Source: Leucoraja erinacea
Lineage: Eukaryota
DNA length: 64,000 bases
Direction of reading: 5' to 3'
NCBI RefSeq assembly: GCF_028641065.1
Contig: NC_073400.1
Coordinates: 19,282,001 to 19,346,000 of the forward strand
Below are positions 23,961-62,913 of this stretch, piece after piece. Below the pieces are notes generated by a model. It did not search any database. It saw nothing but the letters and a program-made list of their open reading frames with translations, and was not told the DNA's origin. The translations under genes were made by a program, and so were the position numbers. Each line of letters begins with the position of its first letter. The first letter of the stretch is position 1.

Positions 23961-24004
23961 TCTCTAGGTTTCAATTCTAGGTTTCTTCAGTTTCAATTTA
24001 TGTG

Positions 24005-24195: not shown

Positions 24196-24199
24196 CAGT

Positions 24200-29809: not shown

Positions 29810-29960
29810 TCCCTCACCCCTCTCTCTGCCCCCACCCCTCTCTCTGGCCCCACCCCTCTCTCTGGCCCCACCCCTCTCTCTGCCCCCACCCCTCTCTCTG
29901 CCCCCACCCCTCTCTCTGCCCCCACCCCTCTCTCTGCTCCCACCCCTCTCTCTGCCCCCC
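29810..29960. repeat. 18-bp tandem repeat within a long C/T-rich low-complexity tract
   Basis: (ccccacccctctctctgc)n. Confidence 0.85.
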
Positions 29961-30941: not shown

Positions 30942-31046
30942 GCTCCAGCTGGCTGGAATGACAATCTCGCGCCCCCCTCTCTCCGTGGGCCGCTACAAGA
31001 TGATCAAACACAACTCGGACCGGGGAAATGAGCAGAACCCAAGGAG
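30942..31046 (+). CDS. B4GALT3: B4GALT3 coding exon 5
   Basis: 105 nt; LQLAGMTISRPPLSVGRYKMIKHNSDRGNEQNPR. Confidence 0.95.
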
Positions 31047-32246: not shown

Positions 32247-32448
32247 GTTTGACCTACTGCTCCGTACCCGCCGCTCCTGGACCCAGGATGGGATGAACTC
32301 TCTGGTCTACACTACTCTGGCTCACCAGCGCCACCCTCTGTTCACCAATGTGACTGTGGACATTGGCCCTGCTCCCCGCCGTCCAGGAACCCCTCTCCCC
32401 AAAACCCACAAAGGCTCCCTTGTGTCTCTGAGGGCAGCAGGGGTGTGA
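32247..32448 (+). CDS. B4GALT3: B4GALT3 last coding exon
   Basis: [19 protein letters not shown]...[12 protein letters not shown] ending at 32448. Confidence 0.94.
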
Positions 32449-37477: not shown

Positions 37478-37564
37478 ATGCCGCGCACCGTGGTCGTTGT
37501 GGGAGCTGGTGTCAGTGGCCTCGCTGCCGCTCTCCACCTCAGCAGAGTTGTACCTGCTGCCAAG
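37478..37564 (+). CDS. PPOX: PPOX (protoporphyrinogen oxidase) coding exon 1
   Basis: MPRTVVVVGAGVSGLAAALHLSR, FAD-binding GxGxxG; acceptor at 37472, donor gtaac. Confidence 0.95.
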
Positions 37565-38003
37565 GTAACGTTCCCTGCCCCGATGCTCCACCAACCCACC
37601 CCTGGCGGTGCTCCCACGCAACCCCTTCCTCCAGTGCCTCCACCCAATGCCTCTTCCCAGGTGCCCACCAACCCTCCCTGTGTGCCCCCTCACCCACCAC
37701 CCCCCCCCCCCCCCCCGTGTGTTCCCTACCCCAGCACCCAGGATAAAATCCCAGCGTCAGACCTTGTGAAGTGCTTGGAAATTCTGCTTGGTTCTAACCC
37801 AAGTAACTGCAGCATCCCTGACACAGGGACAAGACTCAAACTGTAGTAATCCATCATCCACTGTTTACTTCCTCTTCCACCTGTTCCCAATCCCATATTT
37901 CCCCACCCTCTAATCCCCTACTCCCAGTCGCCTGTCCCACCTCCCCTCCCTTCGTTCCTCCCTCCACACTATCCCATCCTTCAATCCTCACTTACCTGTC
38001 CAG

Positions 38004-38138
38004 GTGCTGCTGCTGGAAGCGAGTGATCGCACGGGCGGTTGGCTGCAGACCACACGCACCGAGGAAGGGGCGATATTGGAGCACGGACCCAGGGGAGTCC
38101 GGTCAACAGGGACAGTGGGCACGAACACGCTCCAACTG
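38004..38138 (+). CDS. PPOX: PPOX coding exon 2
   Basis: 135 nt; VLLLEASDRTGGWLQT...EHGPRGVR. Confidence 0.96.
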
Positions 38139-39177
38139 GTGAGGGAGAGGGTCTGCGACCCGGGCCAGGGGGGGTTTCACCAGAATTTCACATCTCCAGG
38201 AGTGCGTTACAGGCTGCAATCTATGCAAGGGTCTTGTGGGTTTATTTATATTATGACGGTTTCCTAGGATCTAATCCAGGCATTGGGGTTTATGTATAGA
38301 ATATCAGATCACTGGGAATGAATTAAAGGCTGGGATCTAATTGAGAGGTTCGGATTTCATGTTTTGACAAAACATTAATGTTTTAAACTGAACAAAACTA
38401 ACAGATTATGTATAAGTGATGTAACATAGAACAGTACAGGAACCTTCAGCCCACAATGTTTGCGCTAAACATGATGCCAAGTGAAACTGAACTCATCTGC
38501 CTGTACATGATCCATAACCCTCCATTCCCTGCACTTCCTTGTGTGTATCTGAAAGCCTCTTACATGGCGGAGGTCCCAGCACAGATCTCTGCGGAACTCC
38601 ACTGGTCACAGCCAGAATATCTATCTTCCACCACAACCCTCTGTCTTCTTTGAATAAGCCAATTCTGAATCCATGTGACCAAGTCATCATGACTCCCGTG
38701 CATCTTAATCTTCTGGAACAGCCTACCATGAGGGACCTTATCAAAAGTTTTACTAACACAATATCCCACCTTCATCAATCTCCTTTGTCACCGCAGAAAA
38801 TGCAATCAAGTTAGTAAGACACATCCTGCCATTTAGAAAGCTGTGGTGGCTCTCCCTAATTAGCCCATTCCCAAATGGGAGTAAATTCTCATCGAAGATT
38901 TCTCTCCCGTAGTTTCCCAACCACTGATGTGAGGCTCGCCGGCCTATAGTTCCCTGGATTCTCTCTTATTTTCCTTCTTAAATAAAGGAACATCACGGGC
39001 AACTCTCCAGTCCTCCGAGAAGGAACATAGATCCTAATCAAGGCCCCCTCAACAACCTGGGATAGATCCCATCAGACTCTGGGGGCGTCCATCTAAATGC
39101 TCTTCAAGAGCCGAAGCACCGCCTCCATAATCACATAATACATACTTTGTCACTATGACCAAAATAGTGTCAATTAT

Positions 39178-39925
39178 TGGCGGCACGGTGGCCAGCCGTA
39201 GAGTTGCTGACTTACAGCGCCAGAGACCCAGGTTCGATGCTGACTGGGTGCTTGTATGTACGGAGTTTGTACATGCGGAGATTTTCTCCGGGACATCTGG
39301 TTTCCTCCCAGTTGCCAAAGACGTGCAGGTTTGTAGATTAATTGGATGTGTATAATTGTAAATTGACCCTAGTGTGTGTGTAGAATAGTGTTGGTGCGCG
39401 GGGATCGCTGGTTGGCGCGGACTCCCAGGAATGTGTAGGTTAACCTATGATGAGTGTTTGTCGGCACTTTGCCTGTACTCACTGGAGTTTAGAAGAATGA
39501 ACGGGGAACCTCATTGAAGAATAGTGAAAGGCGTGGATGTGGAGAGGATGTTTCCACTAGTGGGAAAGTCTACGACTAGAGGTCATAGTCTCAGAATTGA
39601 AGGTCGGTCTTTTAGAAAGGAGACAAGGAGAAATGTCTTTAGTCAGAGGGCGGTGAATCTATGGAATTCTTTGCCACAGAAGCCAGTGGAAGCTAAGTCA
39701 GTGGATATTTTTAAGGCAGAGATAGATAGGTTCTTGATTAGTACAGGTGCCAGAGGTTATGGGAAGGCAGGAGAATGGGGTTAGGAGGGAGCGATTGATC
39801 AGCCATGATTGAATGGCGGAGTAGACTTGATGGGCCGAATGGCCTAATTCTACTCCTATCACTTGTGACCGTAAGACTCGGTGGGTCGAAGGGCCTGTTT
39901 CCGTGCTGTCTGTCTAAACTAGAAC
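39178..39925 (+). mobile_element. SINE with a nested CR1 3' fragment (about 39425-39874)
   Basis: SINE stops at ...gcggactc and resumes gactcggtggg..., duplicating GACTC around the CR1. Confidence 0.75.
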
Positions 39926-40048
39926 TATATGTTGGGACACTATTGACCCCAATTTGACACTATTTTGGGAGTGAATTACAGGGTGGGATGGACATGAAAA
40001 GTTTACCTTCATTTTCCTTTTTCCTCTTCCTTTCTGTTTCACCTCCAG

Positions 40049-40164
40049 GTTTCTGAGATTGGTTTGGAAAGTGAATTGCTTCCAATCACTTACAATGATG
40101 CTGCAACCAAGAATAGATATCTCTTCGTTGGCGGCAAGCTTTGCAAATTGCCTACTAGTATCAG
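40049..40164 (+). CDS. PPOX: PPOX coding exon 3
   Basis: 116 nt; VSEIGLESELLPITYNDAATKNRYLFVGGKLCKLPTS. Confidence 0.94.
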
Positions 40165-40537
40165 GTAGATGGCCATCGCGATGATCAGCCTTTGGTTCAC
40201 AGTCGCCTACTGCATGGTCGCTCGACCCACCATTGCTCCATCAACCCATCTCGGCCCAGTGCTCCCACCTGTGGTCTGACCCAGGGACACTGATCTCTAC
40301 ACTATCCATTTGTCCTCAAATTCCAGAATGCAACTGATGGGGATTCATGGGGGGGGGGGGGGGGGGGGGGGGAGGGAGGGTCAGAGGTCAGAGGTTGGGG
40401 GTGGTCGAGCGGAGGGTGGGGGGGGGGAGGCTGGGACTGGCTGGGATGGATTTGGTCCTGTGGTAATATCTGGCCACAGTTGGGCTCCCATGGACAGCCT
40501 CGGTGTTGACAGTTTCTTGCCCATCTTCCTTGTGCAG

Positions 40538-40671
40538 GAGTGTGTTCAGCAAGTTACCTCCGTTCTCCCAGCCCCTGGCCTGGAGCCTGGCCCGGGAACC
40601 CCATCCTGCCACGGAGCAAGGAGGAGGACGAGAGTGTGCACGCATTCTTCCCCCACAGGTTCGGGGCCGAG
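40538..40671 (+). CDS. PPOX: PPOX coding exon 4 (apparent +1 frameshift and GG donor as assembled)
   Basis: SVFSKLPPFSQPLAWSLARE, then after the C-run at 40599-40602 in the +1 frame ILPRSKEEDESVHAFFPHRFGAE; donor reads gggaga. Confidence 0.85.
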
Positions 40672-41280
40672 GGGAGAGTCCTCGGAGGAGTAGGGCAGCG
40701 TGTATCCACTGCCAGCAGCCCCCACACCAAGGCCCACTCCCCATCCCCCAGCCCCCCCCCCCCTCACCCCCCCCGACCCCCGCTCCCCCACTCCCCGCTC
40801 CCCCCCACACCGCCCGCTCCCCAGACCCCGCTCCCAGCCATTCTCCCCCATCCCCAACATTCCCCGCCAAGCCCCCTACTCTCTGCACCCCCCTTCCCAC
40901 CACACTACCCTTGCCCCCACCCTGCTCCGCCCCCCTTAGCTCCTACCTCCCAGCCCCCAACTCTGCCCCCCTCACCATACTGCCCTCACCAACACCACTG
41001 TACCTCTCCCAGCCCCCACCTCCCAGCCCTCCCTCATCAGGTGCACCACTCCCCACTGGCCCCCCGTACACTCCGTCCCCCTCCTCCACTGCCCCCCCCC
41101 CCCCCCACATTGCCCGAGCCCCCAACTTGCTGACCCCATTCCTCCAACCCCCATCTCCCAGCCACCTGCCCAACAGCACCATCACTGCCCACTGTTCCGC
41201 CCTGTCCTTTCTCCCCCCCCCCCCCCCCCCCCCACACACACTGCCTTCCACCCCCGTTGCTGACGCTGGCTCTCCCACAG

Positions 41281-41429
41281 GTGGCGGACTATGCGGCGGA
41301 CAGCCTGTGCCGAGGGATCTTTGCTGGTGACAGCCGGAAGCTCAGTGTCCGCTCCTGCTTCCCCCCACTCTTCAAGGCAGAGAGGAGCTGGGGCTCCGTG
41401 CTGCTCGGCATGTTTGGTTGGATCAGGGG
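41281..41429 (+). CDS. PPOX: PPOX coding exon 5 (one base too long for the next exon's phase)
   Basis: [34 protein letters not shown]; 149 nt to gtgagt, whereas 148 would keep frame. Confidence 0.9.
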
Positions 41430-41947
41430 GTGAGTGAGGCCCCCTTCTTCTCTCCGCCCCCCTCCCCCTCGCTGCCTTGCATGTCTCGCCCCCTCTCCGC
41501 CCTTCCCCATCAGCTGCCCGTGCACCCCCCCCATCACATCGCCCCTCCCTACCCCCCCTCTATGTCTTGCCCTGCCTCCCTCCTTTGCCCCCCCCCCCCC
41601 CCATCCCACTCCTCCCTCTCCCTCCTCCTTCCTTCGCTCCCTTCCTCCTCCCTCTCTCCTCCTGGCCTGGCTCCCCTCCTCCCTCCTTCCTTCATCTACC
41701 TCCCTCTCCCCCCCCCCGCCCTACCCTCCCCCCTCCTTCCATCTACATCCCCCTACCTCCCCCTCACCCCCCCCCCCCACCCCCCCCTACCCATCCTCCC
41801 TCTTTCGCCCAGCCCCCCCCTCCTTTGCTCTGCCCCCTTCTTTCCCTCCTTCCTTCACCCGGTCCTCCTCCCACCCTCCCTCCCTCCCTCGCTCTCCCGT
41901 CCCCTCACGCCTCCTGCAACACGAACCTGTGGCCACTGTCTGTGCAG

Positions 41948-42141
41948 CTGTGAAGTGGGACGGAGCAAAGACGGAGGTGATGGAGCGTGCGCGGCGCGAG
42001 GGCTGGGCACAGTGGAGCCTGCGCCGGGGGATGCAGAGCCTGCCCGAGGCCATGGAGGCTGCCTTACGGGCGAAGGGGGTGGAGATCCACCTGCACACCC
42101 CCGTCACCGAATTACGACCCGCTGCCGATGGAGGCTGCCAG
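41948..42141 (+). CDS. PPOX: PPOX coding exon 6
   Basis: ARREGWAQWSLRRGMQSLPEAMEAALRAKGVEIHLHTPV. Confidence 0.93.
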
Positions 42142-42177
42142 GTGGGTGACGTGGAGAGCCGGGTGTTTCATTGGCGG

Positions 42178-43460
42178 ATGTACCCGTCACATCATGTACC
42201 CGTCACATCATGTACCCGTCACATCATGTACCCGTCACATCATGTACCCGTCACATCATGTACCCGTCACATCATGTACCCGTCACATCATGTACCCGTC
42301 ACATCATGTACCCGTCACATCATGTACCCGTCACATCATGTACCCGCCACATCATGTACCCTCACATCATGTACCCGTCACACAACAGTCACATCATGTA
42401 CCCCGCCACATCATGTACCCGCCACATCATGTACCCGCCACATCATGTACCCGCCACATCCCATGTACCCGCCACATCATGTACCCGTCACATCATGTAC
42501 CCAGCACATCATGTACCCGCCACATCATGTACCCAGCACATCATGTACCCGCCACATCATGTACCCGCCACATCATGTACCCCAGCACATCATGTACCCG
42601 TCACATCATGTACCCGTCACACAACAGTCCATCATGTACCCGCCCATCATGTACCCCTTCCATCATGTACCCGCCACACCATGTACCCGCCACATCATGT
42701 ACCCAGCACATCATGTACCCAGCCTCATGTACCCAGCACATCATGTACCCGTCACATCATGTACCCGTCACATCATGTACCCGTCCCATCATGTACCCGC
42801 CACATCATGTACCCGCCACATCATGTACCCGTCACATCATGTACCCGTCACATCATGTACCCGCCACATCATGTACCCGCCACATCATGTACCCGCCACA
42901 TCATGTACCCGCCACATCATGTACCCGTCACATCATGTACCCGTCACATCATGTACCCGCCACATCATGTACCCGTCACATCATGTACCCATCACACAAC
43001 AGTCACATCATGTACCCGCCACATCATGTACCCGCCACATCATGTACCCGCCACATCATGTACCCGCCACATCATGTACCCGTCACATCATGTACCCGTC
43101 ACTCATGTACCCAGCACATCATGTACCCGTCACATCATGTACCCAGCCATCATGTACCCGCCACATCATGTACCCGCCACATCATGTACCCGACATCATG
43201 TACCCAGCACATCATGTACCCACATCATGTACCCGCCACATCATGTACCCAGCACATCATGTACCCGTCACATCATGTACCCGTCACATCATGTACCCGC
43301 CACATCATGTACCCGTCACATCATGTACCCGCCACACCATGTACCCGCCACATCATGTACCCAGCCACATCATGTACCCAGCACATCATGTACCCGCCAC
43401 ATCATGTACCCACCACATCATGTACCCGCCGCACAACAGTCACATCATGTACCCGTCACA
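42178..43460. repeat. 16-bp minisatellite (atgtacccgYcacatc), about 80 copies, in a PPOX intron
   Basis: Direct inspection; explains long stop-free ORFs in all three forward frames. Confidence 0.97.
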
Positions 43461-44298
43461 CAACAATAACAGGCCAGTAAACACAAATCACATACATAAA
43501 TATATAATAATTATAATACAACACATTAACTGTCATATTAGGTAACCAAAGACACAGTCCGTCGAAGATTAAAATAGGCACAAAATGCTGGAGTAACTCA
43601 GCGGGTCAGGCAGCATTCTGGAGAAAAGGAATAGATCGAGATCCTTCTTCAGACTGATGATGAAATGTCACCTATTCCTTTTCTCCAGAGACGCTGCCTA
43701 ACCTATTACTCCAGTATTTTGCGTCTATCTTCAGTGTAAAGCGGCATTTGTAGTTCCTTCTTATATAGAAGATTCATGTTGCTCAGGTTCGTGTTGTGCA
43801 GTGTTCAAGAGCCGGGATGAAGCGGTTCTTGTACCTGGTGGATGGGGTTTTCAGTCTCCTGTACCTTCGTCCTGACGGTCGTAACAAAACGATTCGGTGC
43901 CCAGGGTGGTGTGGGTCTTTGATATTGGCTGCCGCTTGTGTAGATGCCCTTGATGGTGGGGTGGTCAGTAGCTGCGTTGTGCCGGGCGGTGTCCACCATT
44001 CTTTCCTGACCAGTTACTGTCCCTTGTTGCTGGGTGTCTGTTTTACATATCACCCCCAAACTCTTGGATTAGAGCCTGTTCTGTAACCCACTGCTGAGTA
44101 TCTGTTATTCTGTACACAAGCCCCAACCCTGGGTGGGGTGACGGCCTGTAGCCCACTCCCAAGTACGTGTTAATCTGTGTATAAACCCTGACCCCTTGGG
44201 TGAGGTGTCAGCCTGTAAGCCACCCCCAGGGGTCTGTGTATTAGCCCCGATCCTGGGTGAGGTCTCAGCTCTGTCTGATCGGTTTGTGTCTTTGGCAG

Positions 44299-44359
44299 GT
44301 GCTGACAGAGGGAGGGATCCTGGCAGCGGACCACGTTTTCTCTGCACTTCCTGCTGGAG
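44299..44359 (+). CDS. PPOX: PPOX coding exon 7
   Basis: 61 nt; VLTEGGILAADHVFSALPAG. Confidence 0.93.
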
Positions 44360-44454
44360 GTAGGTAGAGTGGTGCAGTGGCGTCTGGCCCCAATCACTGT
44401 GTGTGCCGCCCCTGACCTCTGCTCTCCTCACTCCCCCCCCTCCCCCCCTTGCAG

Positions 44455-44573
44455 TGCTGGGCCCGCTGCTGCCCCCTGCCTGGCGACCGCTGGCACAGGC
44501 CCTGGGCAAGATCGGCAGCGTCTCTGTGGCCGTGGTGAACCTGGAGTACGAGGGACGAGTGCTGCCTGTCACG
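44455..44573 (+). CDS. PPOX: PPOX coding exon 8
   Basis: 119 nt; PLAQALGKIGSVSVAVVNLEYEGRVLPV. Confidence 0.95.
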
Positions 44574-44980
44574 GTGAGCAAACCACCCCCTTCTACACTC
44601 CTCGTTCCATTCTAGCCCACCCCTCCCTCGTTCCCTCCCGCTCCACACCCCCTGGTGACCACTCCACCCTCCTTGCTGGCCCCTTCCACACTCCTCGTGC
44701 CCCACCCAACCGTCCCAATCTCACCCTCGCTCCCACTCCACACAGCACCCCTCCCCGCCCCACTCTCTTCCCCCTCGCTCTCCTTTCCCCACCTTCACCC
44801 CATCTCACTCTCCCCATCCTCTCTCTCTCCCCCCACACTCCTCTCTCTCTCTCTCCCCATCACCCTTCCCCTCCCCGCTCTCACTTTCCCCTCCCCCTCT
44901 CTCCCCCCCCCCCCTCTCACTCTCCCCCCTCCCTCAGTGCCAGTCGTCTAATTCTCCCTCTCTACCGCCCCACCCCACAG

Positions 44981-45094
44981 GGTTTCGGACACCTGATTCC
45001 GTCGGGTGAGTGTGGGGAGATTCTGGGTGTTGTCTACGACTCCTGCAGCACCCCCCAGCATGACCGATCGGGATCACCGACCACCAGACTGACG
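44981..45094 (+). CDS. PPOX: PPOX coding exon 9
   Basis: 114 nt; GFGHLIPSGECGEILGVVYDS...RLT. Confidence 0.95.
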
Positions 45095-47208
45095 GTACGC
45101 ATCCCTGCCGGGTGGGTGGGGACATCAGTGGGCACACTGTCAGGTTCCCCTCTGGATGGGTGAAGTCGTGGGCACTGGGACAGATACCCTCATGGATGAG
45201 GGTGGGTGCATCAATGGGCACTCTGGTTAGATATCCACCAGATGACGGTGGACCAGTGGGCACCGTGCCAGATACCCCACTGGGTGGGTGTGTGTATATC
45301 AGTGTGCACTGACACAGATACATGACTGGGTGGGTGAATATCAGTGGGCACCATGTCAGATACACCACTGGGTGAGGCTATCGGTGGACACTGGGACAGA
45401 TACCCCTCTGGGTGAAGGTGGACCAGTGGATACCCATGTTGTGCTCAGGCCGACCCCAGATTGGGTCCCTATGGCAACAATGGAGGCCATTCATGCTATC
45501 GTTATCCCAACAATGGAGGCCATTCATTGCATCCTGTCTATCCTGCTCTTCCACTCTGTGCCCTGACTACAAGGCCATTGCACAATTTCCTTGTAATTCA
45601 CCCCTCCCCTCACAGATCACCATCAGCTGCTGCCAGATCCTCCCAGAAATGAAAAAAAAACAAAACGTGTGAGGCAAAATGATAGAAGAGTTGTGAATTG
45701 GAAAGCCAGAGGAAGGAATGTTGGGGTTGAGGAGAGGAGGGGGAGGGGGGGGGGGGGGGGGAGGGAGAAGAAAAAGGGTCTGCGTGAGAAGGGGTGGAGG
45801 GGAGTGTTACCTAAAACTTGAGAATTCTGTTCATACCATTACGTACAACCCGGTGAGTTGTGTTGGGTGTCCACACTGGGGTCTCTTCTACACTGGAGGT
45901 ACCGGACACAGGTTGTTGTGGACCGCACGATGGACCGACTGTGCTCAGTCCACAGGGACTGTCACCTCTCACTCTCCAGCCCCCACCAATCTCATCACAC
46001 TGTCTGCCTTGCTGCCCTCTCCCAGCGTATGCTTGAGTACCACCCTAGTCACTGACTTGCTGAGTACAGACACAGATCCTTCGGCCCACCATGTCCCTGC
46101 TGACCATCACGTGCCCATCTATGCACATCCCATCTCCCAACAATGTTCTTCAGCCACCTCTATTTTAGCAATTTAAGTGGTTATCTGGGGACTTTTGTGA
46201 GTCCTTGGCTCGACCACCTCTTCACACTCCAAGCATTGTTTGGCAGAAAATAAATCCTCAGATCCTCAAAACCTCACCTTGAAGCTGTGGTTTCGGACAT
46301 CTCTGAAATGAGATGTTTCCTGCTCTCACCCCTGCTCTGCCTCTCATAATTGCCAGCCTCTTATAATTCCCAGGTCCTGACAGAGGGCACAGGCCCTGGG
46401 CACGACCCTCGCCCCTCTCGGAGGAAGGACATGCAATACTCCAACTGCAGCCTAACCAATGTTATACACTCTTCCACTCTGCGCCCCACAACTACCGAAG
46501 GCCAGCATCCCCCTTCTCCACATGTGCTGTTATTTTCAGGGTTCCTTGGCTTTGTACTCCGAGGTTCCTTTGTTTAGGAAGGAACTGCAGATGCTTGTTT
46601 ACACCAGATAGACACAAAATGCTGGAGTAACTGAGTAGGTCTTAGCCCAAAACGACACCCATTCCTTCTATCCAGAGAAGGATCCTTTGTTCCTCCACAC
46701 CACCTGGAATCCCACCCTCCTACTTTCATCAGACTTCCCAACGTGCGTCGCCCAAGCATGGCGGGATTAAATTCTATCTGCTTGCCCAATTTACCAGCCG
46801 GCCAATCTCATTCTGAAGCTGCCTTGCTGTTAACAACACCACCAATTTTCCTGGCATCTGTAAACTTAATCTCCTGATTTGACTAACTGCAGCCCTCGGA
46901 ACTCGCTATTGAATTCTGATAACGAGCCTTTCCAGTTTGTGCCTCTTGCCCCAGCATGGTTTCCTCCTCTCTCCCCTGCTCACCTTACAGTTTTCATTCA
47001 CCTCTAAGTTTTATGCCAGAGACCAGCACCAGAGCATGTCATTCAATCCTGGCCCCGGCATCATGTTTGGCATAGTGGTGCTGAGAGCCCTGTTCCTGTG
47101 CTGTACTGCCCTGTGTGTCCTACTGGGACAGTTTTTTTCCGTAGATGGGGTCAGTGAGAGATCAGTTGCCGTGGGTTTCCTCTCCCTGACTGGCTCCAAT
47201 CTCGGCAG

Positions 47209-47358
47209 GTCATGATGGGTGGATCGTGGTTCACTGGTGCATTCGGAGACCCACAGAGAGTGTCAAAGGAGCACCTGCTGGAACGAGCCAAGGAGGCAGT
47301 GCAGGAACAACTGGGAATCGCAGGACAGCCACTGACAGCCATCGTCAAAGTGCACAAG
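47209..47358 (+). CDS. PPOX: PPOX coding exon 10
   Basis: 150 nt; VMMGGSWF...AKEAVQEQLGI...VHK. Confidence 0.95.
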
Positions 47359-47524
47359 GTGAGAGGGGGCGGCAGCTCGGCAAAATACGGGGGGGGGGCA
47401 CGGGTCAGACAGCGCAGAGCTCCCTCTACACTGTCCTGTCACATGCTCCCAAGGCACGGATCAGACACAGAGTGAAGCTCACCCCGTTTTTATCTCTAAC
47501 TATTCCCATGTTTTTGGCACACAG

Positions 47525-47567
47525 GATTGTATCCCACAGTATGGAGTCGGACACTGGAAACTCCTGG
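47525..47567 (+). CDS. PPOX: PPOX coding exon 11
   Basis: 43 nt; DCIPQYGVGHWKLL. Confidence 0.94.
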
Positions 47568-48616
47568 GTAAGTGTGTTGAGCTACTCGCAGTGTGTCCAG
47601 GTCTGCCTGTGTCAGCGCCGCACCAGCCCCATGCCCTTGACCTGCCCCCCGCTAACCCCTCAGTGTGACCAGGTCTACTTGAGTCGGCACCACTCCATCG
47701 CACACACTCGACCCCGACCCTCACCGCCAGCCACCAGGCATGACCAGGCACAGAGAAGGACAAATGTGGCATTAAACGTCGTTGATGGATGCACCTTTGT
47801 TGGAGGCACTGTCGTGGCATTGCCCGGGCATGGCCTCCCACGCTGTGCCCACCTACCATCTCTCTGCTCCACAAGCAGCAGACATCACATAGTACTCAAC
47901 ACTGGCAGAATGGCACCCAATCCCCATCTGCCACCAGCCCTCACCGCCCCTCTTCTCCTGCATGAAACTACACCTCTGTCACATCTGGCTGTTCCCCCTC
48001 CTGAACCCCCCCCCCCCCCCCCCCCCCCAGCCTCTGTAACCCCCTCCAGTGGAAAACCTCCCTCCCTGTCTCTATAATCTGTGATGCCAACTTCCCTCCG
48101 TCTCCATATGCCCCCCTTTCTATAACCTTGCTACCCTATACCCACCCCATTGTCTAACTCCCTACTATACCTATACCCCTCCCTGTCTCTGTAACCCCCT
48201 CTGCCCCATACAGCCCCCCCTCCTCCAGCCAGTCTGCCTTCCACCAACTCTGTACCTCTTCACACACCGGCATCATTCCCTATCTCTGCAACGCCCCACA
48301 GCGGTCTGTCTCTGCAGCCACATCCGACCCCTACATCCCTCCTTCCCTCTGTAACAACTTCTGGCCCATACACTCCACCCTCTCTCTGTAACCCAAACCC
48401 CAACGCTGAACCCACCGAACTCTAGTGTCCTGCGACTCTCTGGTAGCTGCGATCTTGCTAGGTCAACACTGGTGACACCCAATCAACCCTGCGGCACTGA
48501 CTAACTACATGTTATCTCTCCCCACACCTCCCTCTTCACCCCTCCCTCTTGCTCTCTACCCTCCCCTCCATCTCTCCTCCCTCCCTCTTGCTCTCTCCTT
48601 CCCCCCCACCCCACAG

Positions 48617-48744
48617 CAGACATCTCCAAGTGGACAGCCAGCCACCGTGTACCGCTGACGCTGCTCGGTGCGTCCTACGACGGCGTGTCGGTCAACGACT
48701 GCATCTACCAGGCCCAGCGCGGGGTGGAGCGGCTGCAGGGGTGA
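48617..48744 (+). CDS. PPOX: PPOX last coding exon
   Basis: HRVPLTLLGASYDGVSVNDCIYQAQR...TGA; NAGNAG acceptor. Confidence 0.95.
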
Positions 48745-50949: not shown

Positions 50950-51104
50950 TCATGCGGATGGCCCTCGCTCCAGGCACAGCTCGCACGCCCGCTCCCCCAA
51001 ACAGCACCGCCCTGGCAGTAAGGCCAGCAACACGAGCAACAGCAGCAGCACGGCGCTGAGGACCACGCCGATGCGTCGGTGCGGAGAGCAGTGGGCCGGG
51101 GAAC
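50950..51104 (-). CDS. B7-family Ig gene exon 4 (transmembrane helix and short Cys-rich tail)
   Basis: ttgcag acceptor; SPAHCSPHRRIGVVLSAVLLLLLVLLALLPGRCCLGERACELCLERGPSA*. Confidence 0.8.
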
Positions 51105-51292
51105 CTGCAACACAGGGGACTAGTCACACACAGATCGTGCAAACTCCGCATAGGCAGCACCAGCAGTGAAGATCGAAGCCGAGTTCAGAGCGGGTAACGG
51201 GAGGGAGGCGTGGCAGGAATACAGAGAGGGATGAGTGGCGGGGAGCAGCGGTGCGGAGCTGCCTCGTGTGGTACGGGCTGAGGTGGTATTAC

Positions 51293-51634
51293 CGTCGTTG
51301 TTTGAGCAGCGGCCCGGCATGGAGACGCTGCCCTCGCTCCTCCCGGCGGGGCACGTGGCGCGGCTGCTCTCGGACCGGTTGCTACCGGGAAGGCCGAGCA
51401 CACACCGCAGGGCGGGCGCCTGGCTCACCGCCACGTCCAGCCAGCTCCGGAGCCCGAAGGTCCCATCCGTAGCCGGCATCGTCTTCGAACCCGAGGCCCC
51501 GGGCCCGTACGCGCTGCCGTTGTCCCAGCGCCAGCTCAGCTTGGAGGAAGGGTAGCCGCCTGTCGCCAGGCATATCAGCCTCACCACGGAATCCGGCTTG
51601 GCTTGACAGCTCACCCGAGGGACGCTGAAAGGAG
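51293..51634 (-). CDS. B7-family Ig gene exon 3 (IgC domain and stalk)
   Basis: APFSVPRV...LICLATGGYPSSKLSW...DGTFGLRSWL...LRCVL; ccccag acceptor, G|gtaat phase-1 donor. Confidence 0.85.
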
Positions 51635-51685
51635 CTGGGGAAAGAAGCCACAGGAGGGATTACTTTCAGTTCAACCACCATGGCA

Positions 51686-52839
51686 GGCTGCTCTGGAAGG
51701 TTAGATCGCATGGGATTCAATGAGAGGCAGCTGAACGGATAGAAAATTGGCTTCGTGGAACGAAGCAGAGGGTGATGGTGGAAGGTTGCTTCTCGGACTG
51801 GCGGTCTGTGATTAATGGTGTGCCTCAGGATTCGATGCTGGGCCTGTTACTGTTTGTCAACTACATCAATGATTCGGTTGAGAACATACACGGCAAGATT
51901 AGCAAGTTTGCAGGTGATACAAAAGTGGGTGGTTTTGCAGATAGTGAAGATGGTTGTGAAAACTTGCAGCAGCATCTTGATCGATTGGCCAGGTGAGCTG
52001 AGGAATGGTTGATATAATTTAATGCAAAGGAATGTGAGGTTTGGCATTTTGGGAAGTCTAACATAGGCAGGACATACACAGTGAATGTTAGGGCTCTGGG
52101 GAGTGTTGTAGAGCAGAGGGATCGAGTAGTGCAGGTACATGACTCCTTGAAAGTGGAGTCACGGGTAGATCGGGTGGTCAAAATGACTTTTGGCACATAG
52201 GCCTCCATCAGCCAGAATATTGAGAATGGAAGTTGGGAGGTCATGTTGCAGTTGTAGAAGGCATTGGTGAGGCCGCTTCTAGAGTATTGTGTTCAATTCT
52301 GGGCACCGTGTTCTGCGAAAGATGTTGTCAAGTTGGAAAGGGTACAGAGAAGATTTTCGAGGATGTTACCAGGACTAGTGGGTCTGAGCTATAGGCAGAG
52401 GTCAAGTAGGCTGGGACTCTTCCTTGTAGTGCAGGAAGATGAGGGGTGATCGTATGGAGGCGTATACAATCATGGGAGAAATAGATCGGGTAGATGCACA
52501 GAATCTCTTACCCAGAGCAGGTGAATCGAGGACCAGAGGGTCTAGGTTTAAGGTAAAGGGGAAAATATTTAATAGGAATCTGAAGGGTAACATTTTCCAC
52601 ACAGTGGATGGTGGATATAAGGAACAATCTGCCAGAGGAAGTAGTTGAGGCAGGGACTATCCCAAAATTTAAGAAACAGTTAGACAGGTAGATTGATTGG
52701 ATATGTTTGGAGTGATATGGACCGAATGTGGGCAGGTGGGACTAGTGTCGCTGGGACATGTTGGCTGGTGTGGGCAAGTTGGGCTGAAGGGCATGTTTCC
52801 ACACAGTGTCACTCTATGACACCGCTGTGACTGCAAAGC

Positions 52840-52883
<44 letters not shown>

Positions 52884-55800
52884 CTCTAGTGCTCGTGAGG
52901 GTAAGGGCAGAAATATTGGGGAGATTAATATGTGGCCAAGGAGTTGGTGCCGGGGGCTGGGATACCAATTTCTAGACCATTGGGAATTCGAATGGGGAAG
53001 GGGTGGCCTGTACAAGAGGAATGAGTTGCACCTGAACTGGAGGAGAACCACTATCCTGGCAGGCAGGTTTGCTAATGCTACATCGTGGGTTAAACTAGAT
53101 TGGCATAGAATTAGGATTGTATACAAGACCAAGGCAGGTGAGAGGTTAGAAGTTGATATGGAGATTGATGAGAGACATTATAGAGGACAGAATAGGCAAG
53201 AGAAAGGCAGGGAGTGATTAGATTAGATTAGATTTTATTGTCATTGCACTTTTCAGTGCAATAAAATGATTTTGCCTGCAGTCATAACATAGAATAAATA
53301 ACAAAACAAACACTCAACATAGTTTAAAGTCCAGAAGTCATTGTCTCTTCGCTCCTTGCTCTCCCTCTGCGCTGAGGCAATCCAGGCCTCCGATGTTATG
53401 ACTCCGCCGGGTGATGGTAAGCAAGCCCTGCGGCTGAATGCCAGCTCCGCGAACGGGCCGGTTCAAAGTCCGCGATGAAGGAAAGTTGGTTTCAACTGCA
53501 CATATTATAATGCAAGAGGCGTGACAGGTAAGGGAGATGAGTTTAGATAATTAGAGAGCTCGGAAAAAATGCTGAAAAGCAGGACCTCCAGGGTGGTTAT
53601 CTCCAGTTTGCTTCCAGTTCCTCGTGCTGGCGAGAGCAGGAACTGAATGCGTGGCTGAGGAACTGGTGCAGGGGGCAGGGATTTAGATTCTTAGACCACT
53701 GGGATCTGTTTGGAGTAAGGGGGAACTGTACAAAAGGGACGGATTGCACCTTAACAGGTGGGGGACCAGTATTCTGGCAGGCAGGTTTGCCACTGCTACA
53801 TGGTGGTTTTAAACTAAATAAGGGGGGGGGGGGGGGGGGGAGTTAAATGGGATAGTCAAGGACGGAGTTAAAGGGAAAGAGAGTAAAGGGATAGTTAATG
53901 ACCCAAGAATTAATGGGAAAGAAAGCTCACAAAGGGATAGGAGAGTATGGACAAGTGTAATAGGGATCGATGTGAAAGGTGAGATGCGTAAGGAATTAAA
54001 ATTATTGTATATGAATGCGCGAAGTATAAGAAGTAAGGTAGATGAGCTTGAGGCTCAGTTAGAGGTTGGTAGATATGACATTGTGGAGATTACTGAGACG
54101 TGGCTGCAGGAGGATCGGGCCTGGGAACTTAATATTCAGGGTAATACATCCTATAGAAAGGAAAGGCAGGTGGGCAGAGGAGGGGGGGGGGGTGTAACTC
54201 TGCTGGTGAGGGATGGCATTCAGTCCCATGCGAAGGAAGACAATAGGGACTGGCGAGGTAGAGTCACTGGATTGAGTTGAGGAACTGTAAAGGCATGAAG
54301 ACTTTGGTGTTATCTATAGACCCCCCAAATAATAGCACAGATGTAGGGTGTATGTTGCAGCAGGAGTTAAAACTGGTATGTAACAAAGGTAATGCCACTG
54401 TAGTGATGGAGGATTTCAATATGCAGGTAGACTGGGAAAATCAGGTTGGTTCAGGACCCCAAGAAAGAGAGTTTGTAGAATGCCTCCAAGATGGATTCTT
54501 AGAGCAGCTTGTAATGGAGCCGACCAGAGAAAAGGTAATTCTGGATTTACTGTTGTCTAAAGAACCAGATTTGATAAGAGAACTCGAGGTTATCCCACTT
54601 TTCAAGAAAAGAGCAAGAGAGAAAACGGGGAATTACAGACCAGTTATCCTGACTTCGGTGGTGGGAAAGATGCTGGAGTCAATTATTAAAGAGGTAATAA
54701 TGGGGCATTTGGATAGCAGTAAAAGGATTAGTCCAAGTCAACATGGATTTATGAAAGGGAAATCATGCTTGACTAATCTTCTGGAATTTTTTGAGGACAT
54801 GACAAGTAAGATGGATGAAGGGGAGCCAGTGGATGTAGTGTATCTATACTTTCAGAAAGCCTTTGATAAGGTCCCGCACGGGAGACTTCTGACTAAAATT
54901 AAAGCACATGGTATTGAGGGTAGGGTGTTGACATGGATAGAAAATTGGTTGGCAGGCCAGAAGCAAAGAGTAGGAGTGAACAGGTCCTTTTCAGAATGGT
55001 AGGCAGTGGTGAGTGGAGTGCCACAAGGCTCGGTGTTGGGGCCGCAAATGTTTACTAAACATATTAATGATTTGGAAGAGGGAATTAGGAGCAACACTAG
55101 CAAGTTTGTGGATGACACAAAGTTGGGTGGCAGTGTGAACTGTGAAGAGGATGTTAGGAGGTTGCAGGGTGACCTGGACAGGTTGAGTGAGTGGGCAGAT
55201 ACGTGGCAGATGCAGTATAATATAGATAAATGTGAGATTATACACATTGGAGGCAACAACAAGGGGGCATATTATCATCTCAATAGGTAAGGTGGAAGTG
55301 CAGCGAGACCTGGGTGTCCTTGTACACCAGTCACTGAAAGTTGGCGTGCAGATACAGCAGGCAGTGAAGAAAGCTAATGGAATGTTGGACTTCATTACAA
55401 GAGGATTTCAGTATAGGAGTAAAGAGGTTCTTCTGCAGTTGTGTGGGGCTCTGGTAAATACCACATCTGGAGTATTGTGTACAGTTTTGGACCAATTTGA
55501 GGAAGGACACCCTTTTGATTTAGGCAGTGCAGTGTAGGTTCAGGAGATTGATCCCTGGGATGGCAGAACTGTCATATGAGGAAAGATTGAAAAATGGGGA
55601 ATCGTATAGAAACATATACATTTATAAAAGGACTGGACAAGCTGGATGCAAGGGAAATGTTCCCAATGTTGGGCGAGTCCAGAACCAAGACAGGAGGCCT
55701 TTTAAGACTGAGGTGAGAAAAAACGTTTTTCACCCAGAGAGTTGTGAATTTGTGGAATTCCCTGCCACAGAGGGCAGTGGAGGCCAAATCACTGGGTGGA

Positions 55801-57170
55801 TTTAAGAGAGAGTTAGATGGAGCTCTAGGGGCTAGTGGAATCAAGGGGTATGGGGAGAAGCAGGCACAGGTTATTGATTGGGGACGATTAGCCATGATCA
55901 CAATGAATGGCGGTGCTGGGTTGAAGGGCCGAATGGCCTCCTCCTGCACCTACATTCTATGTTTCTATAAGTACTTATGGCGGGGACATTGTAGCCATTA
56001 TGGAGACTTAGTTAAGAGAGGGGCAGGACAGGCAGCTCAATATTCCAGGGTTCAGGAGAGACGGGGGTAAAAGAGGAGAGGAAGTTGCATTATGAGTTTA
56101 GGAGGATGTCACGGCAGCGGTCAGAGGTGACATTATAGACGGGTTGCCCAGTGAGGCTATATGGGTGGAGCTGAGGAACAAGAAAGGGATGATCACCTTG
56201 TCAGGGGTGTACTACAGACCCCTGAACCGTCAACGGGAATTAGAAGTACGAATATGCCAGGAGATTGCAGACAGTTGCAGGTCAAATAAGGTTGCCATAG
56301 TGGGGGATTTTAACTTTCCTAATGTTGACTGGTAATATCACAGTGCAAACGATGTAGACAGGTAGAATTTGTCAAATGTGTTCAGGAGGAATTCCTCCAG
56401 AAATATGTAGAGGGCACCACATGGGAGAGGGCAACACTTGATCTAGTCTTATGAAATTGGGAGGGGCAAGTGGATGAATTGTTTGTGGATGTGCCTTTTG
56501 GGACCAATAACCGCTGTTCGATTAGGTTCCATGGGATTCAAGGAGAGATAGCTGAATGGATAGAAAATTGGCTTCATGGAAGGAAGCAGAGGGTGATCAT
56601 GGAAGGTTGCTTCTCGGACTGGCGGCCTGTGACTAGTGGTGTTACTCAGGTTTTGATGCAGGACCCATTGCTATTTGTCATCTACATCAATGATCTGGAC
56701 GAGAACGTACATGGTGGCATGGTTAACAAATTCGCAGATGACACACAAAGGGGTGATATTGTAGATAGTGAAGATGGTTGTCAAAAATTGCAGCAGGATG
56801 GCCGAGGAATGGTTGATGCAGCATTAACATGGGCAGGAGCTACACAGAGGATAGGATAGACTTAGAGCAGGGGTTCCCAACCTTTTCCGTCCCGTTTACC
56901 CCTGGCAACTTTAATAGCACATGACAATATTATTTCACTTATTTATGGACAACTAATGATGAACAGATACCGGTATACCGGAACCAAACACAGTCAGTCA
57001 ATGAGAAATGTACTCCCTGAGGGTAAATTTACCCCAGGTTGGGAACCCTTGATTTAGAGGGATACGGGCCAAACGCAGGCACGTGGACTACTGTAGATGG
57101 GACATGTTGGTCAGTGTGGGTAATTTGGGCCGAAGGGCTTGTTTCCATATTGCAAGACTCTATGACTCAC
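51686..57170 (+). mobile_element. Cluster of several CR1 LINE copies filling intron 2 of the B7-like gene
   Basis: ORF1 esterase, endonuclease (YMNARSI, ITETW), RT (NYRPV, SQHGF, FQKAFDKVPH, GVPQGSVLGP, KFVDDTK) and 3' tails, with stops and deletions. Confidence 0.92.
56868..57051. mobile_element. hAT (Charlie-like) MITE inserted in a CR1 tail
   Basis: TIRs CAGGGGTTCCCAACCT...AGGTTGGGAACCCTTG; 8-bp TSD ACTTAGAG/ATTTAGAG. Confidence 0.85.
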
Positions 57171-57543
57171 AGCCCCCCCCCCCCCCCCCCCCCCCCCCTC
57201 AACAACCAACTCTGACCAACTTCCCACCACCACCCTTAAGAATCCCTGATCTATCCCTCCTCCCCCTCTACCTCCCGTTCTGCTGGCCCCCCCCCCCCCC
57301 CCCCCCCGGCACCCCTACCATTACCCCCTCTTTACTGCACCCCACCACTTGCTCTCCCCCATATCTGGCAACTCAATCTCTGCCACTCTCGCTCAGGCCA
57401 CTTTCTGCCCCGGCTCCCCCCCTCCCCCCCCCCCCCTCACTCGCTGTCCTCTCATTCAGTCACCTCTCACCCTCTAACTTCCCACTCTTTATTTTTCTCC
57501 CCACTCCCTCTCCCCCACCTCCCCCATCCTCCCTGCCACCCAC

Positions 57544-57930
57544 CTGTAACGGTGAACTGAGTGTCGATCTCGGTTTTCCAGTCCCGGGTGCGCACTATGC
57601 ACCGGTATGTGCCCTCATCCTGAACCGTGACGTTGTGCAGGCGGAGAGACGCGTCCCCCAGGTCGAGCAGCGTCTCGTTGATGGTCGCCCTTCCCATGAA
57701 GCGGGCGTCCTGGTACTGGGGTTGACTCGCCCCGTCGTAGTAGCTGTAGACCACCAGGGTCTTGGCGGGGTTCCGCAGGCTCCACTCCACGCCCAGGTCG
57801 GAAGCCCGGGGCCGGTTGAAGTGGCAGGTCAGCGTGGAGGACTGGCCCAGCTGCGCCGGGGCAGGGCTCAAGGTCAGGGCATAGGTCAAAGTCAAGACTA
57901 GAGTCAGGACCGGAGTCAGGGGCAGGGTCT
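57544..57930 (-). CDS. B7-family Ig gene exon 2 (hydrophobic leader end and IgV domain)
   Basis: LTCHF...VEW...YQDARFMGRAT...GDASLRLHNVTVQDEGTYRC, the B7/butyrophilin-type IgV signature; phase 1/1. Confidence 0.92.
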
Positions 57931-59073: not shown

Positions 59074-59166
59074 TCAGTCCTCCAAGTTATGGAACGCGTT
59101 TTGCATTTCTTCCAGCAGCAGCGCGTAGTCTGCCTTAATCTTCGCCTCCCCGTCTCTGATGGGGTC
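59074..59166 (-). CDS. ATP6V1A: V-ATPase subunit A-like last exon
   Basis: [30 protein letters not shown]. Confidence 0.95.
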
Positions 59167-59455
59167 CTGGGGGAGGGAGGGGAGGGGGGGCAGTGGCAAT
59201 TAGCAACACTTTCTTAAACCTCTTTGCTGCACCGCCCCCCCCCGCCCTTTGTCACACCTCATTCGCTCTCCTCCCGCTCCCTCTCTCCCTCCACATTTTC
59301 CCTCCCCCTATCCACCCCCCCCACCTCTTTAATCCTCTCTCTCCGTCTCACCGACCCTTTCTTCCCAGCCTCCCTCCCTCCTCCCAATATCTCGCACTCC
59401 CTCCCTCCCTTTCTCCACCCACCCTACCACCACGCCCCACCCTAGGGTCGCTGAC

Positions 59456-59627
59456 CTTGAACTTCATGGCACTCAGCTTGTAGAGGACGTCGCCCAGGTT
59501 GTCTCGGATAATGGCCCAGGTGAGGCGGTTATCAGAGTGAGCCGTGGTCTCCACCGAGTGTCGCGCCAAGTCGTAGAAGGCGATGATGTTCTGCAGGATC
59601 CCCACCGTCTTGTAGAAGGGACAGTAC
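59456..59627 (-). CDS. ATP6V1A: V-ATPase subunit A-like penultimate exon
   Basis: 172 nt; [26 protein letters not shown]...KLSAMKFK. Confidence 0.95.
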
Positions 59628-61349
59628 CTGCAGTCAAGGCGTGGAAACAGGCCCTTTCAGTCTACATTGGTCCCATCTGACTGGGTTTGGCCCATATTCG
59701 TCTCAGTTCGTCAAGTCAAGAGAGTTCAAATTCAAGTCAAGTCTCGTGTCCCAGATAGGACAATTCTTGCTTTGCTTCAGCACAACAGAATATAGTAGGT
59801 ATGAATATAGAACAGATCAGTGTGTCCATATACCATTATATAAATATATACACCCAGCTCAGGTGTGGTTGGATGATTCAGTTGCCCGATAACTGGGACG
59901 AAACTGTCCCTGAATCTGGGCGTGCGCGTTTTCACACATCTATACTTTTTGCCTGATGGGAGAGGGGAGAGGAGGGAGTGGCCAGGTTGCGACTCATCCT
60001 TGATTATGCAGCTGGCCTTGCCGAGGCAATGTGAGGTATAAATGGAGTCAGTGGAAGGGAGGTAAGTTTGTTTGGTGGCTGCGTCCACAATTTTCTGCAA
60101 TGTCTTGTGATCTTGAATGGTATCAATGTACCTGTCCAAATGGTTGTTAAATGTTGTGATAGATAGTACCTGACTCAAACACCTCCCTCGGCAGCTAGTT
60201 CCACCCTTTGTGGAAAGAAAAGTTGCCCATCAGGATCCTATTCAATATTTCGCCTTTCACCTCTCACCTTAAACCTGTGTCCTCTGGTTCTCAATTCCAC
60301 TACTCGGGAGACCTGATTTGGAGGCCAAACCACTGGATTTATGGAGGCCAAATCACTGGAGAGATTTATGGAGGCCAAATCACTGGAGGGCTTTAAGAGA
60401 GAGTTAGATAGAGCTCCATTTGGGCTAGTGGAGTCAAGGGATATGGGGAGTAGGGAGGCACGGGTTATTGACAGGGAACGAACAGACATGATCACAATGA
60501 ATGGCGGTGCTGTCTCGAAGGGCCCAATGGCCTCCTCCTGCACCTATGTTCTATGTTTCTATGTTACTCTGGTCAAAAGACTGCATTTAACGCATCTATT
60601 CCTCTCATGATCTTATAAACCTCTGTAAGATCACCGCTCATCCTCCTGCGTTCCAAGGAATAAAGTATAGCCTGCTCAACCTCTCCCTGCAGCTCAGGCG
60701 TGGCCTCGCTGATGCAAGAAAGAATTTCATTGTTCCATTGTCTGTAAATATTACAATCAAACATTCGTGGTTCTGTATTTTGAAATTTCCACCCTGGGAA
60801 AATTGTCCAGGCTGTCTACCCGATCTTCATGGGGGTAACATACAGAGGTGCAAGGAAAGCAGAGCGGCTTGGGAATATGTGTTGAGCCACAGAGAGAACA
60901 TGCAGCTTCACATGGTCACAACATCACACAGATTGAAGCTGCAGCAAGGCCAGCTGCTTGCCCGCTGTTTGCTCCGAATGTTAACTCCGCGTCTCCCTTC
61001 ACTGATGTCCTCAAACCTACTGTGGTTGAGGACATTTCCCATTCCATCTCCCATTTCCAGCAGACTTTCGTTTTATACAATGAAAAAATCCTGAGCGGTC
61101 GCCTGGAACAGCCCAGAGAGAGGGGCAGAGCAACCTCCTCCTATCGCTCTGCCCACCCCAGCCCCTCTCCCCTTGCATCCCCCAACCTGAACCTCTCCCT
61201 CCTCACCCCGAATCCCCCCACCTCTCTCCGAATCTCCCCCCCCCCCCCCGCCTGAATCCCACACCCCCTCTCTCCCCTGTAATCCCCCACCCTGAATCTC
61301 TCCGTCCTTCTCTCACCCCGAATCCCTTCCCCTCTCACCCCACCCTCAC

Positions 61350-61444
61350 CTGTCGTAGGGGGCGTGTCCGTTCTGCTGCAGGAAGTCGTCCTTCAGCAGT
61401 TTGGCCACTTCCAGCGTGATCTTGTCCAGCTCGGCCAGCGATGC
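61350..61444 (-). CDS. ATP6V1A: V-ATPase subunit A-like exon
   Basis: 95 nt; [32 protein letters not shown]. Confidence 0.95.
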
Positions 61445-61900
61445 CTGTGGAATGGGACACACACACACACTCGCAATGGGCCATGGAGAGAGTGCAGGGG
61501 TCGCGGGTGGAGACTCAGAGAGAGTGGATGGGCCACTGGGAGAGTGGAGGGGCCCTCGGGGAGAGTGGAGGGGCCACGGGCAGACTAAGGGACAGGGCGC
61601 GGGGAGAATGGGGGGTGCGGGTCTTCGGACTAGTGGAGCCACGACTGGAGTATCGTTAATCTGTCCGGTCGCCAGACTAGGGGCAATGTGGGAGTACACT
61701 GGAAGGGGGGGGGGGGGAGAGGGGGTGCAGAGGAGATCCACCAGTGCAGGTGTAGCGTCTGGCCAGAGGCATGGCCTGTGTTTCCCTCCACGGACGGTGC
61801 CTGACCCACAGGCTCCTCTCCTCCCATCCTTGGCCCCAGATCCCAGTATCCGCACTCTCCCCCGTCTCCAGGGACGGAGCGCGACAGTTACACACTGACA

Positions 61901-61958
<58 letters not shown>

Positions 61959-62709
61959 GCGGTGTTCCTGAGCTGATGCAGCTGAACACATGATGGGGAC
62001 AGAGTGGCAGTCTTTCACCCATGCTGGGGTGTTATGGAAGCTTAGGTACAAGAGTAGGTCTTTCGGCCCTTCGAGCCAGCACCGCCATTCAATATGATCA
62101 TGGTTGACCATCGAAAATCAGTACCCCGTTTCCTGCTATTCCCCCATATCATTTGATTCCGTCGAGGATTACAGCGAAGGTTCATGAAGGGGTGGAGTGT
62201 GCAGAGGGGTTTGAAGGGAACTTGATTTCCTCTTCCCGCAGTGACCACGGAGTGGAGCCAAAGAGTCTCACAAACACCAATCGTGAAGGCAGAGAAGGTT
62301 ATAGAACAAGTACCGGTGAACGGGATCGGTGGAGATGGGACTGCATGTGGGCCGAAAGGCCTCGTTCTCGGTTGAATGACTCCACACCACACACGCACAC
62401 AATGTACAGACATACTCAAACATACACAGACACATAAACAGACCCCCACACACACAGACACACAAACTAACACAAACAGACATATACAAATATGAAGGTA
62501 CACAAAAAAGCTGGAGAAACTCAGCGGGTACAGCAGCATCTATGGAGCGAAGGAAATAGGCAACGTTTCGGCCCGAAACGTTGCCTATTTCCTTCGCTCC
62601 ATAGATGCTGCTGCACCCGCTGAGTTTCTCCAGCTTTTTTGTGTACCTTCGACTTTCCAGCATCTGCAGTGCCTTCTTATACAAATATGAACACATTGTG
62701 CGGCCTCAC

Positions 62710-62913
62710 CTTGCCCACCAGCTGCACGATCTCGGCCAGGTCCTCCTCCTCCTGCAGGATCTCCTTGGTGCGGGTGCGGAGCGCGACAAAGTCGGGGAAG
62801 TGCCTGTCGTAGTAATCGTCGAGCAGGCGCGCGTACTTGCTGTAGCTCACCAGCCAGTTGACTGAGGGGAAGTGTTTGCGCTGGGCCAGCTTCTTGTCCA
62901 GTCCCCAGAACAC
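62710..62913 (-). CDS. ATP6V1A: V-ATPase catalytic subunit A-like, internal exon; gene continues right of the window
   Basis: 204 nt; [20 protein letters not shown]...[19 protein letters not shown]; probably a paralog rather than the ortholog. Confidence 0.95.

Follow-up and report, generated by a model that had tools for sequence, protein, structure and literature searches.

An intact second gene for the V-ATPase catalytic subunit A in the little skate, probably derived from early-vertebrate genome duplication

Exons and catalytic residues of the subunit A gene

A stretch of 64,000 nucleotides from the little skate Leucoraja erinacea (RefSeq assembly GCF_028641065.1, contig NC_073400.1, positions 19,282,001 to 19,346,000; hereafter the window) carries on its minus strand part of a gene for the catalytic subunit A of the vacuolar-type proton ATPase (V-ATPase), referred to here as A2, which is probably a second gene besides the canonical ATP6V1A. 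Based on splice signals and alignment, four exons were placed at 62710..62913 (residues 431-498, the end of the nucleotide-binding domain and the start of the C-terminal domain), 61350..61444 (residues 499-530, including His525), 59456..59627 (residues 531-587), and 59074..59166 (the last coding exon, residues 588-617 followed by TGA). Every exon is preceded by an AG acceptor, GT donors open the three introns, whose phases are 0, 2, and 0, and the spliced exons form an open frame of 187 amino acids, with a G+C content at third codon positions (GC3) of 0.87 overall and of 0.93, 0.87, 0.86, and 0.74 from the first exon to the fourth. A match to AATAAA/ATTAAA lies about 40 bases beyond the stop. 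An earlier note on this DNA had described four intact, GC3-rich exons with GT-AG introns and about 16 differences from the human protein among the 57 residues of the penultimate exon. Both descriptions proved accurate, as a count on the alignment gave 16 differences from PDB chain 6wlz_A, the human enzyme, among the 57 positions.

The first three exons matched mammalian V-ATPase subunit A at residues 431-498 (E~1e-35), 499-529 (E~1e-11), and 531-587 (E~1e-25), respectively, far above chance. The 187-residue translation is identical to the Amblyraja radiata protein annotated as "subunit A-like" at 183 positions, with the third exon identical throughout, to Rhinoraja at 180, to other rays at 166-171, and to Mustelus at 156. 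A tblastn search of the window found no A2 exon beyond these four, and residues 1-430 are therefore placed past base 64000. The window codes for residues 431-617 only, and the domain test was made on a full-length orthologue (P0003), in which PF02874, PF16886, PF00006, and PF22919 all scored above the curated Pfam cut-offs. A retrocopy or pseudogene is ruled out by the three GT-AG introns, the open frame, and the intact full-length orthologues.

None of the 32 A2 rows inspected shows a change in the P-loop (250-257), E279, R280, E283, C254, C277, C532, T175, S384, or F445; these are positions to which we assign the P-loop, catalytic glutamate, and regulatory cysteine roles of subunit A, and F445 and C532 are the only ones for which the window codes. 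Control of subunit A by PKA and AMPK is documented in PMC3918592. Elasmobranch A2 has 10 changes at sites that are nearly invariant elsewhere, including Q242L, S285A, and Y525H in six of six rows. Residue 525, coded in the exon at 61350-61444, is His in the window and in these six rows, whereas it is nearly always Tyr in the other 72, and every other row printed has Tyr or Phe. The window gene thus departs from the aromatic residue expected of subunit A at this position; since His also has a planar ring, His525 is regarded as a variant and not as exclusion from subunit A. Residue 525 aligns with yeast Vma1 532 and with chain position 513 of the Enterococcus hirae enzyme, and Vma1 532 is presumably part of the adenine pocket, in a loop of the nucleotide pocket.

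Species distribution, divergence, and phylogeny

With the full-length protein of Amblyraja as query, 2220 matches were obtained, and the following results rest on the best 120 of them. In a tree of 78 rows, A2 comprised 6 elasmobranchs, the coelacanth, 2 sturgeons, 4 amphibians, the tuatara, 7 squamates, a turtle, an alligator, and 12 birds, and the canonical rows comprised all three mammals, 2 squamates, and all 20 teleosts. The elasmobranch matches are all labeled "A-like" by NCBI. The Komodo dragon possesses both genes, and the two Varanus copies are 86% identical, compared to 94% between the canonical Varanus copy and bear. The gene is not specific to fishes, being also found in amphibians, reptiles, and birds and seemingly absent from teleosts. 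Fast-evolving A copies of Betta, Anabas, Monopterus, and Channa (P0140, P0107, P0152, P0137, P0153, P0154), air-breathing fishes, form one group within the canonical teleost clade, and judged from this placement their acceleration is separate from A2.

Skate A2 is 82% identical to bear, further than limpet (85%), and canonical copies average 94% among themselves. Broken down by domain, skate A2 and bear agree at 91% of residues (nucleotide-binding domain), 63% (non-homologous region), and 77% (C-terminal domain); the corresponding values are 99, 82, and 90% for a canonical flatfish copy and 95, 70, and 81% for limpet. Given the unchanged motifs together with domain identities lower than those of the canonical copy and limpet, A2 is, at the level of sequence, a catalytic subunit that has stayed intact while evolving faster. 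In birds, the stem branch of A2 is long, and 13 changes biased to this group fall at conserved sites. The contigs of all 12 bird rows measure at most 8.4 Mb, which would suit a microchromosome of the chromosome-25 type, although this is a weak indication because some contigs may be scaffolds.

Trees were made from 78 rows (FastTree), 47 rows (IQ-TREE, LG+C20), and 25 rows, using rows with a species name and leaving aside additional isoforms, incomplete proteins, and a number of redundant birds and invertebrates; the 25-row set also omits birds, sturgeon, hagfish, tunicates, and most rays. In the 47-row tree, the vertebrate A subunits form a clade (97/97), within which the canonical group has support of 83/81 and the A2 group 71/92, the latter rising to 98/95 in the 25 rows, where long branches are dropped. 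The long-branched sturgeon is misplaced among reptiles in the 47-row tree. In all four trees shown, the skate protein stands outside the canonical group, and it does not nest inside that clade as a recent or translocated copy would. The states that A2 rows have in common are at sites 18, 168, 203, 397, and 526/527.

Placing all amniotes together was rejected by the approximately unbiased (AU) test (p=0.006), which eliminates a duplication of amniote age. A teleost-type duplicate was likewise dismissed, since all 20 teleost rows are on the canonical side and the skate gene is outside of it. The position of the jawless vertebrates differs between trees: lamprey groups with canonical and hagfish with A2 in the 78-row tree, both weakly, and the two stand together (66/58) in the 47-row tree. 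Lamprey and hagfish A subunits (P0145, P0147) are 84% identical to each other and might be different paralogues.

Genomic neighborhood and the second little-skate gene

In human, USP21, PPOX, and B4GALT3 are adjacent at 1q23, and USF3, NAA50, ATP6V1A, and GRAMD1C adjacent at 3q13. The window gene has PPOX, B4GALT, and USP genes as neighbors, not USF3, NAA50, or GRAMD1C, which together with its position outside the canonical group sets it apart from a canonical orthologue, although the AU tests (p 0.07-0.13) do not formally reject a place with the canonical group. The little-skate annotation lists two Atp6v1a genes on different chromosomes (PMC10115646, supplementary file 2). The loop bait of Atp6v1a-1 is at 13.02-13.03 Mb on Leri_6C, and that of Usf3 at 13.06-13.07 Mb, 40 kb apart, which identifies Atp6v1a-1 as the canonical gene of the 3q13 type. 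Atp6v1a-2 (LE29312) falls in a block of gene identifiers with Mpz (LE29206), Nectin3-2 (LE29242), Pfdn2 (LE29326), Tomm40l (LE29412), Ppox (LE29457), and Casq1 (LE29598), of which Tomm40l is on Leri_24C (PMC10115646); from this block we infer that Atp6v1a-2 is also on Leri_24C and that it is the window gene. The earlier note had proposed a second A-subunit gene on a 1q23-type block, distinct from the canonical gene, and the two annotated genes and the PPOX, B4GALT, and USP neighbors bear this out.

Nectin3-3 is located on Leri_6C, Tagln3 and B4galt4 on Leri_13C, and Tagln, Usp2, Arhgap32, and Cdon on Leri_32C (PMC10115646), and Leri_6C/13C, 24C, and 32C have nectin, transgelin, B4GALT, ARHGAP, and USP paralogues in common. 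SI Table 3 of the same source places LER6 together with LER13 in a single alpha cell, and assigns LER24 and the GGA25 segment to beta, beta segments showing more gene loss and faster evolution (PMC10115646). The canonical copy had been expected in the same region as B4GALT4. A 3q13-type copy was indeed found, next to Usf3 on Leri_6C, but B4galt4 is on Leri_13C; the paralogon argument holds even though, in little skate, B4galt4 and the canonical copy are on different chromosomes.

The gene order in the window is a USP2/USP21-family deubiquitinase (minus strand, 5′ part, approximately 930..12960), a beta-1,4-galactosyltransferase (plus strand, approximately 22738..32349), PPOX, the marker of 1q23 (plus strand, 37500..48744, start approximate, from sequence match), a B7/butyrophilin-family immunoglobulin gene (minus strand, 50950..57930, from sequence matches), and A2. 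From the stop of PPOX at 48744 to that of A2 is 10,330 bases, in keeping with the distance of about 10 kb first proposed. Linkage to B4GALT3 and USP21 had been claimed as well, and both families are present; the two names are likely, by linkage rather than by comparison of sequences. Of the USP exons, the single one examined gave a slightly higher score with USP2 (39 bits) than with USP21 (33 bits), and an Atlas search with the N-terminal USP exon gave only leads below 0.9. Because little-skate Usp2 sits on another chromosome, Leri_32C (PMC10115646), the window gene is probably USP21.

The B7/butyrophilin gene between PPOX and A2 has one V exon (57544-57897 or -57930), one C exon (51293-51634), one transmembrane exon (around 50950-51107), and a short tail, the leader not being fixed, and its best PDB matches are CD276, VTCN1, and BTN2A1. 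B7 genes are located at human 3q13 as well, and this gene may be a member of the same paralogon. A direct duplicate of 1288 bases (1872-3159 and 8846-10133, 99.6% identical) within a long intron of the USP gene is either a young repeat or an assembly artefact. Other features of the window are a tandem array with a unit of about 16 bases in a PPOX intron (42178-43465) and a gap of 142 N between the galactosyltransferase gene and PPOX (35321-35462).

Origin and role of A2, and comparison with known systems

Taken together, it is probable that the exons in the window make up the 3′ third of a second, intact V-ATPase catalytic subunit A gene, which arose in the early-vertebrate whole-genome duplications and may serve as an expression-biased isoform. 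The origin in those duplications is likely, and we hold with good confidence that a real and intact gene, probably so derived, has been kept broadly in jawed vertebrates other than mammals and teleosts. Given such an origin, an active isoform with biased expression is mildly favored. According to this scenario, A2 would have been born on the 1q23-type block, paralogue of the 3q13 block with canonical ATP6V1A, retained in elasmobranchs, coelacanth, sturgeon, amphibians, reptiles, and birds, and apparently lost on separate occasions in mammals and in teleosts. Its product would occupy the places of subunit A in the A3B3 ring, either by itself or together with canonical A, and would hydrolyze ATP at the A/B interface, turn the central stalk, and pump protons in the manner of the ordinary enzyme. 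Because A2 has changed mostly outside the catalytic core, namely in its non-homologous region and C-terminal domain, its most likely role would be that of a cell-type-biased isoform differing in regulation, assembly, or coupling, similar to the B1/B2 pair.

Several points weigh against this reading. The trees were made without canonical chondrichthyan, coelacanth, amphibian, or bird sequences, and the support of 98/95 comes from a set chosen and reduced after the first tree was seen. Out of the four alternative topologies given to the AU test, three were not rejected: a grouping of all tetrapods (p=0.219 and 0.057), one of all bony vertebrates (p=0.127 and 0.073), and one of elasmobranch A-like with canonical (p=0.127 and 0.073). 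The strict polarized site count gave only 3 derived sites for the A2 clade versus 2 for a bony clade, and 0 for elasmobranch with canonical. Owing to these tests and this count, the protein alone appears to favor, without proving, a duplication before the shark/bony fish split. The window gene was equated with Atp6v1a-2 by linkage and identifier block, not by sequence, and the synteny evidence is that of little skate. Apparent separate loss in mammals and teleosts follows from A2 not being found among the best 120 of 2220 matches, with no search specific to monotremes and marsupials. The domains fastest in A2 are also the fastest in limpet, a pattern that does not prove specialization, and the expression data are those of pectoral-fin RNA sequencing (RNA-seq). 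The earlier proposal of an ohnolog lost in mammals is largely but not fully supported: the two groups, the paralogous blocks, and three of three mammal rows being canonical speak for it, and neither outcome named as refuting it, a single A gene or nesting within the canonical clade, was observed, but the three topologies above were not rejected.

A serious rival to a specialized A2 is redundancy with relaxed constraint, in which A2 is an ancient copy that contributes dosage and drifts toward loss on a small, GC-rich, loss-prone chromosome of the beta type. We consider this possible though clearly less likely. It would account for skate A2 being further from bear than limpet is, for the GC3 of 0.87, for the gene loss and fast evolution of beta segments such as LER24 and the GGA25 segment, and for the detection of Atp6v1a-2 in fin RNA-seq at a baseMean of 550, with a log2 fold change of 1.0 between fin regions (PMC10115646). 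However, at least seven major lineages have preserved an intact A2 since gnathostomes radiated, its catalytic motifs are invariant, and its lineage-fixed changes fall at near-invariant sites, 10 in elasmobranchs and 13 in birds.

Other origins appear improbable. If the skate gene were a chondrichthyan-specific duplicate moved to the 1q23-type block, and the A-like genes of tetrapods, coelacanth, and sturgeon a separate duplication joined to it by long-branch attraction, the unrejected topology (p=0.127 and 0.073), the long batoid stem branch (0.20 in the 47-row tree), and the 3 versus 2 diagnostic sites would be explained; yet support for A2 went up when long branches were dropped, the common A2 states would need another cause, this origin would call for two separate duplications and for one copy ending up in the paralogous block by chance, and the small contigs of all 12 bird rows speak weakly against it. 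We give similarly little credit to one small-scale duplication on the gnathostome stem lineage in place of a genome duplication, which would fit the two copies seen and the conflicting positions of lamprey and hagfish, a conflict that leaves the timing at the first or second round of genome duplication (1R or 2R) unfixed; against it, the chromosomes of the two copies share the nectin, transgelin, B4GALT, ARHGAP, and USP paralogue sets. It is scarcely credible that the genome has no other ATP6V1A and that the window gene is a translocated and fast-evolving canonical copy, because Atp6v1a-1 is annotated beside Usf3 on another chromosome in addition to Atp6v1a-2 (PMC10115646), and the uniform "A-like" label of the elasmobranch matches also speaks against it.

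As for the role of the isoform, the idea that A2 is specialized for acid-secreting gill cells found no support; the expression seen for Atp6v1a-2 is in pectoral fin. The V-ATPase-rich gill cells of elasmobranchs are base-secreting rather than acid-secreting. Dogfish gill cells rich in V-ATPase are described in PMC3918592. It is a rather speculative thought that A2 is a distinct catalytic isoform for specialized proton-moving cells (ionocytes, intercalated-type cells, osteoclasts), with His525 altering nucleotide handling in elasmobranchs, and that bird A2 could be the vanadate-sensitive A subunit of osteoclasts. Chicken osteoclasts reportedly contain an unusual vanadate-sensitive A subunit of about 63 kDa (early 1990s), and mammals are not known to have a second A gene that would explain such a subunit. 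The predicted masses, 67.5-68.0 kDa for bird A2 and 68.4 kDa for the canonical protein, argue against bird A2 being that 63-kDa subunit.

Subunit A is usually treated as the one subunit of the V1 head that vertebrates encode by a single gene, which is true of mammals. In searches of open-access literature, at the level of listings and the openings of abstracts, no paper describing the A2 paralogue was found. The one supplement of PMC8040251 consulted, which curates only trios and quartets, did not contain ATP6V1A, PPOX, B4GALT3, or USP21, and there was no match in the supplements of PMC9974502 or in the main text of PMC3296468, which deals with gene loss in early mammals. Where V-ATPase has been studied with antibodies, quantitative polymerase chain reaction, or inhibitors, as in shark gill, the skin and bladder of amphibians, turtle bladder, and bird osteoclast, either of the two catalytic subunits may have been the one measured. 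A2 is moreover a testable candidate for the old reports of odd A isoforms, and His525 a natural variant of the nucleotide-pocket loop.

Compared to canonical ATP6V1A (chains A of PDB 6wlz, 6vq6, and 7u8o), A2 is alike in length (617 amino acids in the Amblyraja orthologue), in its four Pfam domains, and in its catalytic motifs, and differs in its 82% identity to bear, in its chromosome block, and in Y525H, Q242L, and S285A of the six elasmobranch rows. The NCBI models named "V-type proton ATPase catalytic subunit A-like" represent the same gene as that of the window, as the 183 of 187 identities to the Amblyraja radiata model indicate. The names "A-like" and "Atp6v1a-2" were assigned automatically. 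The gene also exposes inconsistent database naming: "A-like" is given to teleost canonical duplicates too, and A2 of Pogona, Alligator, Pleurodeles, and Struthio is labeled plain "A", and thus the A2 group is not recognized as one gene. The teleost duplicates, atp6v1aa and atp6v1ab, resemble the A2 case in having two A genes per genome, but with all 20 teleost rows canonical they represent a younger duplication and not A2. The closest parallel is found in the B-subunit ohnologs atp6v1Ba, B1, and B2, which, as A2 probably is, are V1 head paralogues from whole-genome duplication, more than 80% identical and with lineage-specific losses (PMC3827601). B1 is tissue-restricted and was lost in teleosts (PMC3827601); it is kept in mammals, where A2 seems lost, and tissue restriction has been shown for B1 only. 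As an evolutionary event, A2 would be ordinary, an ohnolog with lineage-specific loss of the kind already documented for subunit B (PMC3827601).

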